The notes under the pieces are model-generated. The model worked only from the letters and a program-made list of their open reading frames with translations. It made no database searches and was not told the origin of the DNA. The position numbers were made by a program, and so were the translations under genes. 64,000 bases of DNA from Candidatus Moraniibacteriota bacterium (GTDB lineage: Bacteria; Patescibacteriota; Minisyncoccia; Moranbacterales; UBA1568): the NCBI GenBank assembly GCA_052034935.1, contig JBPOIB010000001.1, positions 316,348 to 380,347 on the forward strand, written 5' to 3'. Positions 5,704-53,464 of this stretch are shown here, piece after piece (position 1 is the stretch's first letter; each line of letters begins with the position of its first letter).

Positions 5704-6735
5704 CTAGAATTGGCGGATAAAGCGGAGGTCGCCCGACATGAGGAGGCGGATATCGGAAATCTTGTACTTCATCATGGCGAGCCGGGTCAGTCCGAAACCC
5801 CAAGCGAAACCCTGATACTGATTGCGCTTATAGCCGGCCGCTTCGAGTACGTTCTGATGGACCATACCCGCACCACCGATCTCGAGCCAGCCTGTCCCCT
5901 TGCAGACCGGACAGCCGCGACCATCGCAAAGAAGACAATTTACGTCAAATTCAAACGACGGCTCAGTGAATGGGAAAAAGCTCGGGCGCAGGCGGACGGT
6001 CGTCTCACGTTGAAAGAAGGCCGTGAAAAAGTTCTCCGCTACCGATTTGAAATTCGCAACGGAAACATGATCCCCCACCACCAAACATTCGAACTGATGA
6101 AAGGTGTGCTCATGCGAGGCATCGGTCGCTTCATTGCGGAAAATCCGGCCGGGTATGATGATTTGGAAGGGTGGCTTATGCGTTTCCATATACCGCACCT
6201 GAACCGAGGAAGTATGGGTCCGTGGCAAATATTTTTTTTTGCCCCACGTCTCTCCCAACCAGAAGGCATCCTGCATATCGCGGGCTGGATGATCGGGCGG
6301 AAAGTTCAAAGCATCAAAGTTATACCATTCACTTTCAATCTCCGGACCATCGGCGACGGAGAATCCCATGGAGGCGAAGATATCTTCAATCTCATGTTCG
6401 ATCCGTGTGATGGGATGGAGGTGTCCAGCACGCTCACTTTTGCCGGGTAGGGTCACATCAATCGCATCACTCACAACACCGATATCTTTCGAAAAGACAC
6501 GGTCCTTTGCCGCCTCAAAAGCCTCAAAAAGCTCGCGCTTGATACCGTTTCCGGCGGCGCCGACTGTTTTTCGCTCCTCGGGGGATAACTCCTTCACCCC
6601 TTTCAGCAGCGTGTTGAACTCGCTTTTCCGCCCGAGATACGTGTTTTCCCAGGCATGCAAAGAAGCCTCGTCTTTGGCCTCTGCGAGGGCACTTAGCGCT
6701 TCTTGTTGTATAGCTTTCAGTCGATCAAGGGTCAT
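5704..6735 (-). CDS. pheS: phenylalanine--tRNA ligase alpha subunit
   Basis: 343 aa; class II aaRS core with ...FPFTEPSFEFDV... and C-terminal GWLEIGGAGMVH...; 3 nt from pheT. Confidence 0.93.
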   Translation of the reverse strand: MTLDRLKAIQQEALSALAEAKDEASLHAWENTYLGRKSEFNTLLKGVKELSPEERKTVGAAGNGIKRELFEAFEAAKDRVFSKDIGVVSDAIDVTLPGKSERAGHLHPITRIEHEIEDIFASMGFSVADGPEIESEWYNFDALNFPPDHPARDMQDAFWLGETWGKKKYLPRTHTSSVQVRYMETHKPPFQIIIPGRIFRNEATDASHEHTFHQFECLVVGDHVSVANFKSVAENFFTAFFQRETTVRLRPSFFPFTEPSFEFDVNCLLCDGRGCPVCKGTGWLEIGGAGMVHQNVLEAAGYKRNQYQGFAWGFGLTRLAMMKYKISDIRLLMSGDLRFIRQF

Positions 6736-23606: not shown

Positions 23607-24686
23607 TTACCGTTTTGAAGCCCCTTTGAGCGCCTCGATATGCCGCTTCTCTTCGGAAGAAAGCGACCGAGGGATGATAATCGAAGTTTTTACTAAGTGG
23701 TCGCCACGGCCGAAGCGGCCGAGCTTGGGTATTCCTTTGCCGCGGATACGGAAAATCTCGCCCGGCTGCGTTCCGGCCGGAATCTTCATATTCACTTCAC
23801 CATCAATAGTTGTAACCGGAACCTTATCACCCAGCGCGAACTGATGGAACGCGAGCGGAAGTTCTGAAGCGATATCATCTCCTTGCCGAGAGAACCGGCT
23901 ATCGCGTTTCACCCGGACAACAACATAGAGGTCGCCGTTTGGTGCACCGAACTCTCCGGCCGCTCCCTGGCCCGTCAGTGAAAGCGCTTGCCCGTCCTCG
24001 ATACCGGCTGGGATACTGATCTCCTTTGATACTTCTCCTTCCGCTCGGCCCACTCCGCGGCAACGATGACATGCTTCACTCTGGATTCTCCCTCTTGCGT
24101 GGCAACGATTACACGGCACCGACTGGGTAAATGTTCCGAGTATTGTATTGATATTCTGAGCAATTGAACCCCTGCCACCACAATCCGAGCAGGTCTTTTC
24201 ACTCGATCCGGGAGCGCCGCCCGTTCCCTGACAATCAGGACACCGGACAAAGGTCCGAAAATTGACTTGTCGCTTCGCGCCCTGAACCATTTCTTCAAAG
24301 CTGATTGCGATGTCGGTCTGGATATCGCTGCCGCGGCCCGATCGCTCTCGTCGACCGCCGCCGGTAAAAAGATCAGAAAAGAGATCCTCCATATTGGCGC
24401 CGCCGAAATTAAACCCTGCACTGCCATTAAAATCAAAACCACCGAATCCCTGCCCCCGTGACTGGCCAGATGATCCAGAGAATGTCTGCCCGTACTGATC
24501 ATACTGTCGTCGCTTTTCTGGATCACTGAGGGTACTGTAGGCTTCGTTAATTTCCTTAAACTTGGCCTCGTCGCCACTCTTCTTGTCCGGATGATGCGCA
24601 TGAGCAAGCTTCCGATAGGCTTTTTTCAGCTCATCGGGCGAAGCGGTCTTGGAAACCCCCAGAATAGAATAGTAGTCTTTAGGCAT
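23607..24686 (-). CDS. dnaJ: chaperone DnaJ (ORF track starts 21 nt further upstream; [11 protein letters not shown] is the canonical N-terminus)
   Basis: J-domain with HPD (AHHPDK), Gly/Phe-rich region, four CxxCxGxG zinc-finger repeats, C-terminal substrate-binding domains. Confidence 0.92.
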
Positions 24687-24700
24687 ACAGGATAACAAGA

Positions 24701-24742
24701 TTAGCACTCATAATTATCGAGTGCTAATCAATGGCTGTCAAC
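24701..24742 (-). promoter_or_regulatory. CIRCE operator (HrcA binding site) overlapping a sigma70-like promoter of dnaJ
   Basis: Perfect CIRCE TTAGCACTC-ataattatc-GAGTGCTAA at 24701-24727, 15 nt upstream of the dnaJ ATG; minus-strand TTGACA (24742-24737), 16-nt spacer, CATAAT inside the CIRCE left arm. Confidence 0.8.
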
Positions 24743-50054: not shown

Positions 50055-50528
50055 CTACTCTTTCGCGGCACCCATGTCAGCCAGCACTTCAGCGACATGC
50101 TCAGCCGGCTTCACTGCATTATAAATTTTTGAAATCTTCCCTTTTGGATCGATGAGGAATGAGACGCGATTCGTTCCCATGTATTCGCGACCCATAAATT
50201 TCTTCTTCCCCCATACCCCGTACAGCTCGACGACTTTCTTTTCTTCATCAGCCAAAAGCGTAAACGGCAGCTCATATTTCTCCGCGAACTTCGCATGCTT
50301 CTTCGCCGAATCGGTCGAAACCCCGAGCACTGCCGCGTCCAGTTTTTTCAACACAGAGAAGTTATCCCGGAAACTACAGGCTTCGACCGTGCAGCCAGGG
50401 GTATCGTCTTTCGGGTAGAAATAGAGCACGACCCACCGTCCTCGGTACTGCTTCAATGAATGCATATCGCCATTCTGGTCAGGCAGTTTGAAATCCGGTG
50501 CCGCTTTGCCAACTATTGGTACAGACAT
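50055..50528 (-). CDS. bcp: thiol peroxidase Bcp (peroxiredoxin, AhpC/TSA family)
   Basis: Peroxidatic Cys context DDTPGCTVEAC; 157 aa. Confidence 0.9.
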   Translation of the reverse strand: MSVPIVGKAAPDFKLPDQNGDMHSLKQYRGRWVVLYFYPKDDTPGCTVEACSFRDNFSVLKKLDAAVLGVSTDSAKKHAKFAEKYELPFTLLADEEKKVVELYGVWGKKKFMGREYMGTNRVSFLIDPKGKISKIYNAVKPAEHVAEVLADMGAAKE

Positions 50529-50571
50529 ACTATTTCCGTGATAAGAAAATTGGATAGGATTAATTCTAACA

Positions 50572-50620
50572 CAAATGAAAAAGCCCGAGACGCTGCACTT
50601 GCGCGCTTTGTCTCGGGCTT
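50572..50620 (-). terminator. rho-independent terminator after the small ORF 50649..50831
   Basis: Stem GCCCGAGAC (50583-50591) / GTCTCGGGC (50610-50618), then TTTTTCATTT on the minus strand. Confidence 0.55.
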
Positions 50621-50648
50621 CACAGTCTTGTCAGCGTTGCTGATTCGA

Positions 50649-50831
50649 CTAATTGGTGACCACTGACTCCTCGGCCGACTGCCCAGACGACTCTTCGCCT
50701 GGAACGTTCACCGCTTCTACCGAATCACCCAAAGGCCGGTGATAGGTCAGGTAGTGGCGAGCCATGCGCATGACCACCGCACGATGATGGGAGAAACCGC
50801 TCGTTGGCGGCGTTTGCTGTGCATCTGCCAT
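50649..50831 (-). CDS. hypothetical small protein (60 aa)
   Basis: ATG at 50831 with AGGA about 13 nt upstream; stop followed within 30 nt by a strong terminator; sequence MADAQQTPPTSGFSHHRAVVMRMARHYLTYHRPLGD..., no family recognised. Confidence 0.4.
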   Translation of the reverse strand: MADAQQTPPTSGFSHHRAVVMRMARHYLTYHRPLGDSVEAVNVPGEESSGQSAEESVVTN

Positions 50832-50956
50832 GTGTAACGAAAATCCTTATTGTGAAGTTACGGAATACCCTTGCCTCGCTGTTGTCTCGACGAACGAAGC
50901 GGAGATAGTGTATCAGGAAATAATGGTTCCGTCAACTTTCGATTAGAAAAAGCTAT

Positions 50957-50985
50957 TTGACACCAAAAAAGAGGCTGTTTATACT
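50957..50985 (+). promoter_or_regulatory. canonical sigma70-type promoter TTGACA-N17-TATACT
   Basis: TTGACA 50957-50962, 17-nt spacer, TATACT 50980-50985; the predicted TSS at about 50992 coincides with an ATG. Confidence 0.6.
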
Positions 50986-50991
50986 GGGCCC

Positions 50992-51096
50992 ATGGAAACA
51001 TATCGGTCCATGTTTATGCGTTTTATCTGTTCCCTCTCCTTTTGGGAGAAGGGAGACCGATTTGTTTTTGCTCTTGAACGTATCCGCCGAAGATAA
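50992..51096 (+). CDS. putative leaderless 34-codon leader peptide ORF (Phe-rich)
   Basis: ATG exactly at the predicted TSS; encodes METYRSMFMRFICSLSFWEKGDRFVFALERIRRR (5 Phe, 1 Trp); spans hairpin 1 and the antiterminator strand. Confidence 0.3.
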   Translation: METYRSMFMRFICSLSFWEKGDRFVFALERIRRR

Positions 51097-51150
51097 GGCA
51101 CCTCGATAGCAGAAAGAAGCCGGTCTCCCAATGGAACCGGTTTTTTGTTC
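51031..51150 (+). promoter_or_regulatory. attenuator-like leader: anti-antiterminator hairpin, 9-bp long-range antiterminator pairing, and terminator hairpin with U-tract
   Basis: Hairpin TCCCTCTCC(51031-39)/GGAGAAGGGA(51045-54); GGGAGACCG (51051-59) is the exact reverse complement of CGGTCTCCC (51121-29), which forms the 5' arm of the terminator CCGGT(51120-24)...ACCGG(51136-40)+TTTTTT(51141-46). Confidence 0.45.
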
Positions 51151-51179
51151 GCTAACAACCTATCGCAAGGAGTAGCATT

Positions 51180-51371
51180 ATGCTCGAAGGAGCCGATTTT
51201 CACGACCTTCGGATGATGGAGATGGGGCCGTTCCACACCCAAAGAACTCCTGTCATTCGACCAGAAGATACCCAAACTCGTTCTACGGAACCACTCTCGA
51301 AAGCGGCTCCTCCTGGTCCGGAGAAAAAGGAAGTGCTTATTTTCCCAAGTCTTTGGGATCAGGGCGACTGA
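51180..51371 (+). CDS. hypothetical small protein (63 aa) downstream of the attenuator-like leader
   Basis: AAGGAG 8 nt upstream of the ATG; followed by hairpin GACGCC...GGCGTC + T-run (51395-51432). Confidence 0.5.
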   Translation: MLEGADFHDLRMMEMGPFHTQRTPVIRPEDTQTRSTEPLSKAAPPGPEKKEVLIFPSLWDQGD

Positions 51372-51394
51372 TCAATCGTCAGCACCACTCTCGG

Positions 51395-51432
51395 CCGGTA
51401 CCAAACACAGACGCCAACGAAATCGAGGGCGT
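51395..51432. terminator. terminator hairpin between convergent small ORF (+) and rarA (-)
   Basis: GACGCC-aacgaaatcgag-GGCGTC followed by TTTACTTTATCCCAAATATTTTTTTT. Confidence 0.5.
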
Positions 51433-51434
51433 CT

Positions 51435-52655
51435 TTACTTTATCCCAAATATTTTTTTTCCTTGTAGCCTCTTCGGAAGATATTCTTGCGTCGCCTCCGT
51501 CGCATCCTTGAAATCAGGCGTATACTTGTACCCTTCACCGTATCCAAGAGACTTCATCAGCTTCGTCGGAGCATTGCGGAGATGGAGCGGTACCGGTTCG
51601 TTCGGATATTTGGCAATATCTTGCTTCACTTGGCCGTAAGCCATGTAGAGTGCATTCGATTTCTTCGACTGCGCAAGATAGACCACGGCCTGGGCGAGGT
51701 TGACTTCGCACTCCGGCATCCCGATGAATTGGCATGCTTGATACGCTGCAACTGCCTGTGGGAGCGCGAACGAATTCCCCATCCCGACGTCTTCGGAGGC
51801 GAAACGGACTAATCGACGAGCGATATAGAGCGGGTCTTCACCAGCTTCGAGCATCCGTCCAAGCCAGTAGAGGCTCGCATCAGCATCCCCGCCGCGCATC
51901 GATTTATGAAGAGCCGAGATGATAGTATAGTGTTCCTCCCCGTCTTTGTCGTAGAGGAGGTGTGATCGCTCAACAATTGCTTCGACGATCTTCACGGTAA
52001 TCTTCTTTCCGAAGCTCGCGCACGCCTCGAGGATATTGTAAGCCGCCCGAGCATCGCCGCCGGAAATCGCCGCGATAAAGTGAAGTGCTTCTGGATCCGC
52101 CTTGGCACGTTTTGTCTTCAATTCCTCATCTTGTTCCAGCGCTTGGGATAAAAGCGTCTCGATATTTTCTGGAGCGTGTCGTTCCAGAACAAGCACCCGA
52201 GTCCGCGAAAGGAGGGCCGCGTTTACTTCGAAGCTCGGATTTTCGGTCGTCGCACCGATGAGTGTCACCGTCCCATTTTCAACATGCGGCAAGAGTGCGT
52301 CTTGCTGCGACTTGTTCCAACGGTGAATCTCATCAATGAAAAGAATAGTCCGCGCGCCGAGCCGCTGTGTCGCTTTGGCTGCTTCGACGACTTGGAGCAG
52401 ATCTTTCTTCCCGCTTTCAACACCGGAAAGAGAAATAAAGTGCGAGCGTGTTTCGGCTGCAATCAGGCGCGCCAGAGTCGTCTTGCCGCTTCCCGGCGGT
52501 CCCCAGAATAAAAGCGAGGGCACGCGATCTTCCTCTATTGCCTGACGGAGAAATGAACCCTCGCCGAGAACTTTTTTCTGTCCCAGAAAATCAGCCAACA
52601 TCTTCGGTCTCATCCGTTCGGCGAGCGGCACCAGCGGTTCTGTTTCAGTCGGCAT
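51435..52655 (-). CDS. rarA: replication-associated recombination protein A (RarA/MgsA AAA+ ATPase; ORF track extends to 52844)
   Basis: Walker [10 protein letters not shown], Walker [10 protein letters not shown], sensor and C-terminal MgsA helical domain; Met at 52655 gives N-terminus [17 protein letters not shown] typical of RarA. Confidence 0.88.
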
Positions 52656-52660
52656 AAAGG

Positions 52661-53464
52661 CTAATTCGAACCGTCTGCATCCGAAAAAACAAGCGAGAGT
52701 CCGACCGGACAGTGGTCCGATCCGATAATGTCTGAGAGCACAATCGACTCTTTCACATTCGGCATGAGAAGCGGATCGACGAAGAAATAATCGATCCGCC
52801 AGCCGACGTTGCGCTCGCGCGAACGGGTCTTCATATCCCACCAAGTATAGGCGACCTCTTTCGGATGGAGATGGCGGAAAACGTCAACGAAGCCCTCTTT
52901 AACCAGACTATCAATCCAAGCGCGCTCCATGGGCATGAAACCTGAAGTTTTTTCATTCTCTTTCGGCCGGGCCAGATCGATTTCCTGATGCGCTGTGTTC
53001 ACATCGCCGCAGACAACGATTTTCTTTCCCTGCTTCTTCAAGTGGAGGAGGTAGTGCAGGAATTCTTCATAGAACTGCATCTTGTACTGAAGCCGGAGAT
53101 CACCCGATCCGCCGTTTGGGAAATAGACATTGAGGAGGGTGAAGTGACGGAATTCCATTTCGATCACCCGACCTTCTCGAGAGAGAAGATTGTCGCCGAA
53201 AAAAGTCTTTACGGAAAAAGGACGTTTTTTCGTATAGATACCGACGCCGCTGTAACCCTTCTTTTCGGTCGAGCAGTTGAAATAGCTGGTATAGCCGTCC
53301 GGATTCCGGAGATCTTCCGATAACTGATCCGGGTCGCTGATTTTGGTTTCTTGGACCGCCACGATCGGAAACTTCCCCTGCTGCATCCAGGCGATGAAGT
53401 CTTTCTTGCCGGCCGAGCGAAGGCCGTTTACGTTCCAGGAGATGAGGGTATATTGCTCTTGCAT
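52661..53464 (-). CDS. xth: exodeoxyribonuclease III
   Basis: MQEQYTLISWNVNGLRS... EEP-family motifs (...GDVNTAHQEID..., ...SDHCPV...). Confidence 0.9.
   Translation of the reverse strand: MQEQYTLISWNVNGLRSAGKKDFIAWMQQGKFPIVAVQETKISDPDQLSEDLRNPDGYTSYFNCSTEKKGYSGVGIYTKKRPFSVKTFFGDNLLSREGRVIEMEFRHFTLLNVYFPNGGSGDLRLQYKMQFYEEFLHYLLHLKKQGKKIVVCGDVNTAHQEIDLARPKENEKTSGFMPMERAWIDSLVKEGFVDVFRHLHPKEVAYTWWDMKTRSRERNVGWRIDYFFVDPLLMPNVKESIVLSDIIGSDHCPVGLSLVFSDADGSN

Follow-up and report, generated by a model that had tools for sequence, protein, structure and literature searches.

Within 64,000 nucleotides (nt) of a Candidatus Moraniibacteriota bacterium (assembly GCA_052034935.1, contig JBPOIB010000001.1, positions 316,348 to 380,347 of the forward strand; hereafter the window), nearly all genes lie on the minus strand. 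Between bcp (50055-50528, minus strand) and rarA (51435-52655, minus strand), a rare plus-strand unit is found, in which a promoter, a short leader open reading frame (ORF), an intrinsic terminator and a gene for a protein of 63 amino acids (aa) follow one another. This arrangement raises the question of what the leader does for the gene behind it. A first reading from the letters alone (the sequence-only reading) had proposed a ribosome-mediated attenuator or a riboswitch platform, possibly sensing Phe-tRNA. After a comparison with related genomes and RNA folding, the unit is best described as a ribosome-dependent (leader-peptide) transcription attenuator with a leaderless leader ORF, to which we assign a probability of about 0.5; within this description, the transcription start site, the antiterminator, the translation of the leader ORF and the sensed signal are its predicted parts.

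The leader unit and its relatives

The leader unit recurs at the bcp-unit-rarA locus in at least nine related Moraniibacteriota-like metagenomic genomes, and bcp and rarA always flank it wherever both flanks fall on the contig. A RarA protein search yielded graded closer relatives, with the leader present in loci L084 and L089 and partly in L090. A degenerate DNA pattern of the best-conserved codons, searched in metagenomes, added two more divergent copies, L091 and the cut copy L092; a further match of this pattern, L093, was rejected as a chance match. A profile of the downstream ORFs retrieved a small family (P0122-P0131) and added the loci L094, L096/L097 and L098. The resulting leader alignment, A6, holds 8 full and 2 partial leaders (L090 and L092 being partial). 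The best species match of the window RarA in GTDB reached 67% identity, and no leader, peptide or small ORF was detected by blastn, tblastn or an nhmmer profile at the rarA loci of 80 GTDB species representatives (RarA identity ≤67%). The unit was wholly absent from L085 and L086-88, in which rarA directly adjoins bcp. At L085 (3398-3529) and L086 (4212-4274), where the RarA identity is 81-82%, the gap between rarA and bcp is 60-130 nt and the module is absent, while L098 and L099 (approximately 80% RarA identity) carry it, so that presence and absence are patchy inside a narrow clade. Viral contigs and phage genomes were also searched and gave no match, hence no evidence for a phage origin.

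Transcription of the unit is predicted from a sigma-70-type promoter, TTGACA (50957-62), 17 nt and TATACT (50980-85), which spans 50957-50985 on the plus strand and matches the consensus at 11 of 12 positions. It is the best plus-strand promoter of the window and belongs to 10 strong promoter-like sites in the 64 kb. In the seven genomes in which the -35 region could be read (window, L083, L084, L089, L094, L096 and L098), both hexamers and their 17-nt spacing were invariant, and the spacer and the upstream sequence were variable. The -10 box was kept in all nine copies, with an AUG 6-8 nt past it in each. Judged from this alignment, the leader promoter is phylogenetically footprinted.

In the window, the leader ATG (50992) lies 6 nt beyond the -10 box and no Shine-Dalgarno site precedes the AUG; transcription would start at AUG 50992 or within 2 nt of it. 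Such an arrangement recurs in the window, as three of the 10 strong promoters put a start codon 5-6 nt after the -10 box. At this distance stand the GTG of a 366-aa ORF (23607-24707, minus strand) behind the promoter at 24741-24707 and the ATG of a 343-aa ORF (5704-6735, minus strand) behind the promoter at 6770-6735. As two long ORFs begin in this way, leaderless genes appear to be normal in this genome. Leaderless translation is therefore plausible here, and leaderless mRNAs seem to be common, as far as promoter positions indicate.

The ATG at 50992 opens a 34-codon ORF (METYRSMFMRFICSLSFWEKGDRFVFALERIRRR; 50992-51096, with TAA at 51094-96) that encodes five Phe and one Trp. Accordingly, the promoter, the start codon and the Phe-rich ORF claimed by the sequence-only reading were all found as described, and the promoter and start codon are conserved in the relatives. 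Frame 1 is the sole frame that is open in all nine copies. It holds 80 synonymous differences, compared with 63 and 29 in the other frames, and its replacements are the mildest (mean BLOSUM62 score of -0.20 versus -1.18 and -0.95). In the close subfamily, the ratio of nonsynonymous to synonymous divergence (pN/pS) was approximately 0.2 in frame 1 and 0.6-1.5 in the other frames. Translation of the leader ORF is likely on this comparative evidence. The peptide consensus reads M-x-x-Y-R-S-M-F-[MI]-x-[FM]-[IM]-x-x-F-F-F-W-[KE]-K-G-D-R-F-V-F-A-L-E-R, followed by a short basic tail; the core FFFW[KE]KGDRFVFALER is conserved and the peptide replacements are conservative. Two overlapping frames were rejected as genes, namely the antisense 98-aa ORF (50979-51275) and a plus-strand frame-2 ORF, both of which contain stop codons in the distant subfamily.

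The nucleotides of the leader are conserved as well. Between the window and the Logan contig L083, only 3 substitutions were counted over 155 aligned positions (98% identity), while the synonymous divergence (pS) was 0.28 in rarA and 0.59 in bcp. Compared with L084 and L089, the leader is 89-91% identical and rarA 76-80%, and the synonymous sites of the leader evolve approximately three times more slowly than those of rarA and bcp (pS of 0.26-0.29 versus 0.6-0.77). As a separate observation, the consensus fold leaves AUGUUUAU (51009-51018; RNA nt 18-27), which covers codons M7-F8 and the first part of codon 9, unpaired. This stretch is invariant in all nine leaders, including its synonymous position, and may serve as a seed, a pause site or an internal start.

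Predicted alternative folds of the leader RNA

The 159-nt leader RNA was predicted to fold at -55.7 kcal/mol, with a z score of -4.2 relative to dinucleotide shuffles, into a 5' domain (P0/P1/P2), a middle hairpin and a terminator. In the 5' domain (51002-51061), which would act as the anti-antiterminator, P1 pairs AUCGGUC (51002-08) with GACCGAU (51055-61) and P2 pairs 51031-40 with 51044-54; both helices fall within codons 4-24 of the leader ORF. P1 was invariant in eight sequences and weakened in L092. In P2, pair 61/69 changed in a compensatory manner (UA in five, CG in two and UG in two sequences). The hairpin formed by TCCCTCTCC and GGAGAAGGGA within the ORF, which had been noticed in the window, was thus recovered, and it covaries among the relatives (C-G to U-A). 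The middle hairpin (51065-51115) joins 51065-77 with 51103-15 and carries the leader stop codon in its apical part according to the RNAalifold consensus. It comprises 12 conserved pairs and a variable apex, in which the stop codon shifts in whole-codon steps.

The intrinsic terminator (51114-51146) consists of an A-tract, the 5' arm CCGGUCUCC (segment 3, 51120-28), a loop, the 3' arm GGAACCGG (segment 4) and six T residues at 51141-46, so that the hairpin and T run of the sequence-only reading are present. In the window, its stability was -16.6 kcal/mol (z = -3.6). All nine copies that reach this far (the eight full-length leaders and L090, since L092 ends before the terminator) possess a GC-rich stem of 8-10 base pairs (bp) followed by U5-U8. 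Pairs 145/171 and 150/166 covary, one being AU in four, GC in three and GU in two copies and the other UA in six, CG in two and CA in one. Hence P2 and the terminator are shown by comparison of the aligned sequences.

The proposed switch depends on segment 2, GGGAGACCG plus AUUUG (51051-51064), for which two partners are predicted, segment 1 when the transcript is terminated and segment 3 when it is read through. Segment 2 is invariant in 10 sequences except for A51056G in L083. The two complementary 9-mers that had been reported, GGGAGACCG at 51051-59 and its exact reverse complement CGGTCTCCC at 51121-29, were confirmed and proved to be part of a longer pairing, in which GGGAGACCG·A·UUU·G·UUUUUGCU pairs with AGCAGAAA·G·AAG·C·CGGUCUCCC. 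The predicted antiterminator of 9 + 3 + 8 bp (about 20 bp) sits on the middle hairpin and lengthens it by approximately 12 bp, thereby using up both the A-tract and the 5' arm on which the terminator depends. In the window, the antiterminator fold was calculated at -54.3 to -55.2 kcal/mol, which is 0.5-1.4 above the minimum free energy (MFE) of -55.7, and the gap across the orthologs was 0.0-7.2 kcal/mol. Among 20,000 dinucleotide shuffles, 139 (0.7%) contained a perfect complement of 9 nt or more linking the 5' region of the terminator to the upstream leader.

The effect of a ribosome was modelled by masking a 27-nt footprint and recomputing the MFE in eight orthologs. With the footprint at codon 8 or 11, the antiterminator became the MFE structure in six of the eight, and at codon 16 in three. 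When the mask was placed at codon 17 or beyond or at the stop codon, the terminator was obtained nearly always, the exception being L083 at the stop codon. The two arms of the terminator also differ in their variability, with 1 of 10 variable columns in segment 3 compared with 6 of 9 in segment 4, and the terminator loop varies freely. Near-invariance of segment 3 alongside drift of segment 4 is expected if segment 3 must fit two partners; the antiterminator 9-mer is conserved at eight of nine positions. The antiterminator switch is accordingly well motivated by conservation and modelling but not proven. Of the three mutually exclusive pairings proposed at the outset, the in-ORF hairpin and the terminator covary and masking of early codons flips the predicted fold in most orthologs, whereas the 9-mer pairing does not covary. 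A covariation check of the three stems had been suggested, and it came out in favour of P2 and the terminator and not of the 9-mer antiterminator.

The attenuator would operate as follows. RNA polymerase would begin at or near the AUG. With no ribosome on the transcript, segment 1 (51002-08 and 51031-40) would pair with segment 2 (51044-61), the terminator (51114-46) would form and an RNA of approximately 155 nt would be released. A ribosome that reaches the stop codon (51094-96) would cover the middle hairpin and keep segment 2 from segment 3, and the terminator would form again. A ribosome lingering in about codons 5-16 would instead cover segment 1. The freed segment 2 (GGGAGACCGAUUUG) would then zip onto segment 3 (..GAAGCCGGUCUCCC) and extend the middle hairpin, and the antiterminator would block the terminator, so that the small gene behind it is transcribed as well. 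Slow translation would be what the leader senses, and the stalling region of the relatives would contain F15-F16-F17-W18.

The presumed target gene, the candidate signal and the competing explanations

As the attenuator would act on the small gene, the features of this gene bear on its plausibility. The Shine-Dalgarno sequence AAGGAG (51167-51172) precedes the 63-aa ORF (51180-51371, plus strand) by 7 nt, and both are present as described in the sequence-only reading; a purine-rich motif (AAGGAG, GAGGAG or AAGGAA) occupies this place in all orthologs. The Shine-Dalgarno sequence lies outside both alternative leader folds and is partly paired with local sequence in the fold of the read-through transcript. 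As the gap between the terminator and the Shine-Dalgarno sequence is approximately 30 nt, there is no room for a separate promoter of the small gene, which supports its linkage to the leader in one operon. In most relatives, the product has 76-77 aa with the pattern MFE[GA]AD..D.R.L…PC..CGS.N…W/C.R…[FY]GCC..L. The window protein is a cysteine-less, internally shortened relative of this 76-aa CxxC...CC family; none of the four cysteines is left, about 25 residues have been lost, and the protein can be aligned with the family only over the N-terminal 20 or so residues (MxEGADxxDLR) and an STxP motif. On these alignments, the window ORF is a decayed member of the CxxC...CC small-protein family. 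Its single homologue, 90% identical, lies in the syntenic L083, and the pN/pS between the two is 0.26, based on few changes. The sequence-only reading had counted a lack of conservation of the 63-aa ORF among the results that would speak against it, and this is partly the case. The ORF itself proved poorly conserved, whereas a small gene homologous to it follows the leader in eight of nine genomes. An exhaustive profile search recovered approximately 10 CxxC...CC clusters among 1.84 billion representative proteins, none of them annotated, and structure prediction for the family (predicted local distance difference test score, pLDDT, of 72) gave no significant fold match in the PDB.

Two observations on individual relatives concern this gene. 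In L099 (2428-2500), a clean deletion removes the -10 box, the leader ORF and the terminator, the promoter spacer is fused to CTCCCAACCGAAAGGAG, and the zinc-ribbon-like gene is extended to 110 aa and overlaps rarA. In L084 (4213-5200, minus strand of the locus), a further promoter, TTGCCA-16-TATACT, comes after the small ORF; we return to it below.

In the case of the signal, codons 15-18 encode FFFW (UUC UUC UUU UGG) in six of nine orthologs, and L089 has FFLW at this place. The FFF codons are placed 12-17 nt ahead of segment 2, a spacing that corresponds to the geometry of trp and phe leaders, and their bases double as the 5' arm of P2, in which UUCUUC pairs with GAAGAA. Slow early translation is preferred as the signal; general translation stress would be the safer reading and Phe-tRNA shortage the most specific candidate. 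Specific sensing of Phe is nevertheless unlikely. The proposal that the leader senses Phe-tRNA gains from the FFFW of the relatives at the canonical distance and loses from the window itself and from the nature of the downstream gene, as set out in the next paragraph.

Several results weigh against the attenuator as described. The window and L083 encode LSFW (CUC UCC UUU for LSF) in place of FFFW; this change is accompanied by a compensating AAG-to-GAG change, by which P2 is preserved and two Phe codons are lost. The downstream gene has no link to Phe, and its protein has no Pfam family, no significant fold match and no assigned function. In the antiterminator pairing, no compensatory change was found in alignment A6. 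The sole variable pair, 79/150, is A-U in five sequences, G·U in one and A·C in three (L094, L089 and L090), in which the 9-mer duplex is weakened from -17.3 to -12.2 kcal/mol, and the U-to-C change behind the A·C is compensated in the terminator instead. L091 was predicted to terminate under every mask at equilibrium because its terminator is a perfect 10-bp stem. When pN/pS was computed over all nine sequences, the frames contrasted weakly (0.64 versus 0.70). Finally, the leader is far better conserved than its presumed target: it is retained where the gene has lost its cysteines (window and L083) or is barely recognisable (L084), and the small gene persists without it in L099.

As the leader is the conserved core and the target is labile, a stand-alone or dual function of the RNA or peptide has to be kept in consideration, and this is the main reason for doing so. 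In the stand-alone form, which is possible although on balance improbable, the unit would be a gene for a 34-aa micropeptide, a structured small RNA (sRNA) of approximately 155 nt or a dual-function RNA acting in trans; the terminator would be ordinary and possibly leaky, and the downstream ORF would be expressed by passive read-through only, without regulated switching. The near-identity of the leaders of the window and L083 beside diverging rarA and bcp genes points in this direction, as do a leader that stays intact where the gene has decayed (window and L083) or been replaced (L084), a gene that survives without the leader in L099, the conservative replacements and conserved core of the peptide, and the unpaired, invariant AUGUUUAU in nine of nine copies. 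An attenuator RNA acting in trans also has a precedent in rnTrpL (PMC6614838). However, a plain terminator leaves the alternative pairing of about 20 bp, the near-isoenergetic fold and the asymmetry of the terminator arms unexplained, selection on the protein alone would not freeze synonymous sites, and no trans target was identified. This explanation is compatible with the attenuator rather than exclusive of it. A combination of the two, rather unlikely in our estimate, would make the 155-nt RNA and/or the 34-aa Phe- and Arg-rich peptide a dual-function regulator, a cis attenuator as well as a trans sRNA or micropeptide, selected independently of the decaying gene.

The remaining explanations were judged far less probable than these. 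A riboswitch that binds a metabolite or a tRNA (T-box-like or of a new class), with the terminator and antiterminator as its expression platform and the ORF as incidental, would agree with the order of promoter, structured leader of approximately 130 nt, terminator, Shine-Dalgarno sequence and gene, and with the strong conservation of RNA structure and nucleotides. It is very unlikely given that the P1-P2 junction (variable columns 27-49), which would be the aptamer core, is the most variable part of the leader, and that the AUG frame from the predicted start is open in nine of nine copies with a stop codon moving by whole codons. Moreover, an Rfam scan of the whole window at the gathering threshold (4227 families) was passed by RNase P alone and by no leader family, and a permissive scan of 50500-51500 (E ≤ 10) returned noise only, with Thr_leader as the sole leader-type match (17.8 bits versus a threshold of 55, E = 1.6), confined to the terminator part. 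Thus, of the attenuator-or-riboswitch layout proposed from the sequence, the attenuator stands as probable, and the riboswitch was left with no Rfam match and with variable stretches at the would-be aptamer core. A type I toxin-like small peptide, the mRNA of which would be kept translationally inert by sequestration of its 5' end, is the least probable explanation and hardly to be expected. In its favour, the peptide is a short one, aromatic and hydrophobic, that ends in an Arg-rich tail; the terminated fold pulls the 5' end into a long helix; and the unit is patchy among close relatives (L085 and L086 lack it). On the other hand, its hydrophobic run is at most 13 residues long, is broken by Arg and does not amount to a transmembrane-length helix; no promoter is present on the antisense strand, whose reading frames are interrupted by stop codons (the PADLOC defence library was not scanned); no match was found in Pfam or the phage collection; and the locus is stable and syntenic.

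Comparison with known systems and neighbouring features

Leader-peptide attenuators of amino-acid operons are classically represented by trpL, pheL/pheA, pheM/pheST, hisL and thrL of E. coli. The present unit shares with them a short ORF close to the promoter, four segments for which 1:2, 2:3 and 3:4 pairings are predicted, an intrinsic terminator immediately before the presumed target gene, a repeated codon (FFF in the relatives) approximately 15 nt upstream of segment 2 and a predicted logic in which an early stall leads to read-through and either no or full translation leads to termination. Unlike in those systems, the leader ORF here has no 5' untranslated region (UTR) or Shine-Dalgarno site, the leader is longer (32-34 codons) and its peptide is conserved past the candidate regulatory codons, and the antiterminator extends a separate middle hairpin. 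The target would be a 63-77-aa protein without assigned function rather than a biosynthetic or aminoacyl-tRNA synthetase gene, and the host is a bacterium of the Candidate Phyla Radiation (CPR). No catalogued Rfam family was matched significantly, including those of amino-acid leaders. The element is probably an uncatalogued one that mechanistically resembles classical leader-peptide attenuation and has one unusual feature, its leaderless leader ORF.

Antibiotic-responsive ribosome-mediated attenuators, such as bmrB-bmrCD and vmlR of B. subtilis, have reportedly been revealed by Term-seq. As in these, any slowing of the ribosome on the leader ORF would switch the terminator to the antiterminator, and the target need not be metabolic; however, those leaders have Shine-Dalgarno sites and control resistance genes, while the downstream protein here has no antibiotic link. 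In mycobacteria, attenuators with a leaderless polycysteine short ORF have been described that unmask a ribosome-binding site and so control translation (Canestrari et al., bioRxiv 10.1101/834739). In both cases a leaderless short ORF is the first cistron, and stalling at a homo-codon tract would remodel the RNA and turn on the next gene; in the present unit, however, the competing element is a terminator, the repeated codons specify Phe instead of Cys and have been eroded in the window, and the phylum is a different one. The rnTrpL RNA of Sinorhizobium, as mentioned, is an attenuator-derived dual-function RNA acting in trans. By analogy, the short terminated leader transcript may have its own function, which would account for the stronger conservation of the leader relative to its cis target; in contrast to rnTrpL, no trans target or peptide function is known for this leader, and the likeness is an analogy only.

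No published report of transcription attenuation in CPR/Patescibacteria was found. These bacteria have tiny genomes, and to our knowledge very few regulators are known from them and no genetic system is available. If the attenuator is real, CPR bacteria would use the classical coupling logic of ribosome and RNA polymerase, a leaderless mRNA could serve as a sensor of ribosome speed, and a rare zinc-ribbon-like small protein family would stand under a translation-stress signal, which would be a lead to its function. The leader unit would also be small enough for tests in vitro or in a surrogate host. That the leader outlives its target gene raises the possibility of a dual-function RNA or micropeptide; a dual function, if true, would give CPR bacteria their first described ribo-regulator or micropeptide module.

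As for the surroundings of the unit, a hairpin with a U-rich tail follows the 63-aa ORF (51409-51434, plus strand; 7-bp stem, approximately -14 kcal/mol, z = -1.4), is conserved in L083 and adjoins the stop codon of the converging rarA. A terminator had been proposed at this place; the hairpin and its U-rich tail exist, but they are weaker than the leader terminator. The mechanically called rarA ORF (51435-52844, minus strand) begins at a TTG, encodes 469 aa and overlaps the upstream exonuclease gene; the start is the ATG at 52655 (406 aa) in the gene calls on identical contigs and in all homologues. The only Rfam family of the window is the class A RNase P RNA (RF00010; 2873-3232, minus strand; 126 bits). 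Identities as signal recognition particle RNA, 6S RNA and transfer-messenger RNA were considered and dropped, with no Rfam match and the wrong architecture. Pfam gave nothing for the 34-aa, 63-aa, 60-aa or 76-aa proteins.

The 60-aa protein belongs to a divergent minus-strand unit that backs onto the leader promoter. This unit has a promoter-like TTGACG-17-TACACT (50935-50907), a 60-aa ORF (50831-50649) without a Pfam match and a strong U5 hairpin at approximately 50620-50575 (-28 kcal/mol, z = -4.5). Constraint on the 60-aa ORF is weak (pN/pS of 0.28-0.69); it is frameshifted in L094 and absent from the distant subfamily. The stretch between the divergent promoters, 50880-50945, doubles as the 5' UTR of the 60-aa ORF. 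It is almost unchanged across the window, L083, L084 and L094, while the ORF beside it is only approximately 80% identical; the stretch could be an operator or a structured 5' UTR.

The second promoter of L084 heads a further unit, in which a near-leaderless 19-codon ORF (MKTFSSHYSMMYMRSPETV) is followed by a long hairpin with a T-tract and, at the end, by a 260-aa SAM_HAT_C-like gene (PF20257, E = 4.7e-6). Placing leaderless short ORFs in front of genes may be a style that recurs in this lineage.

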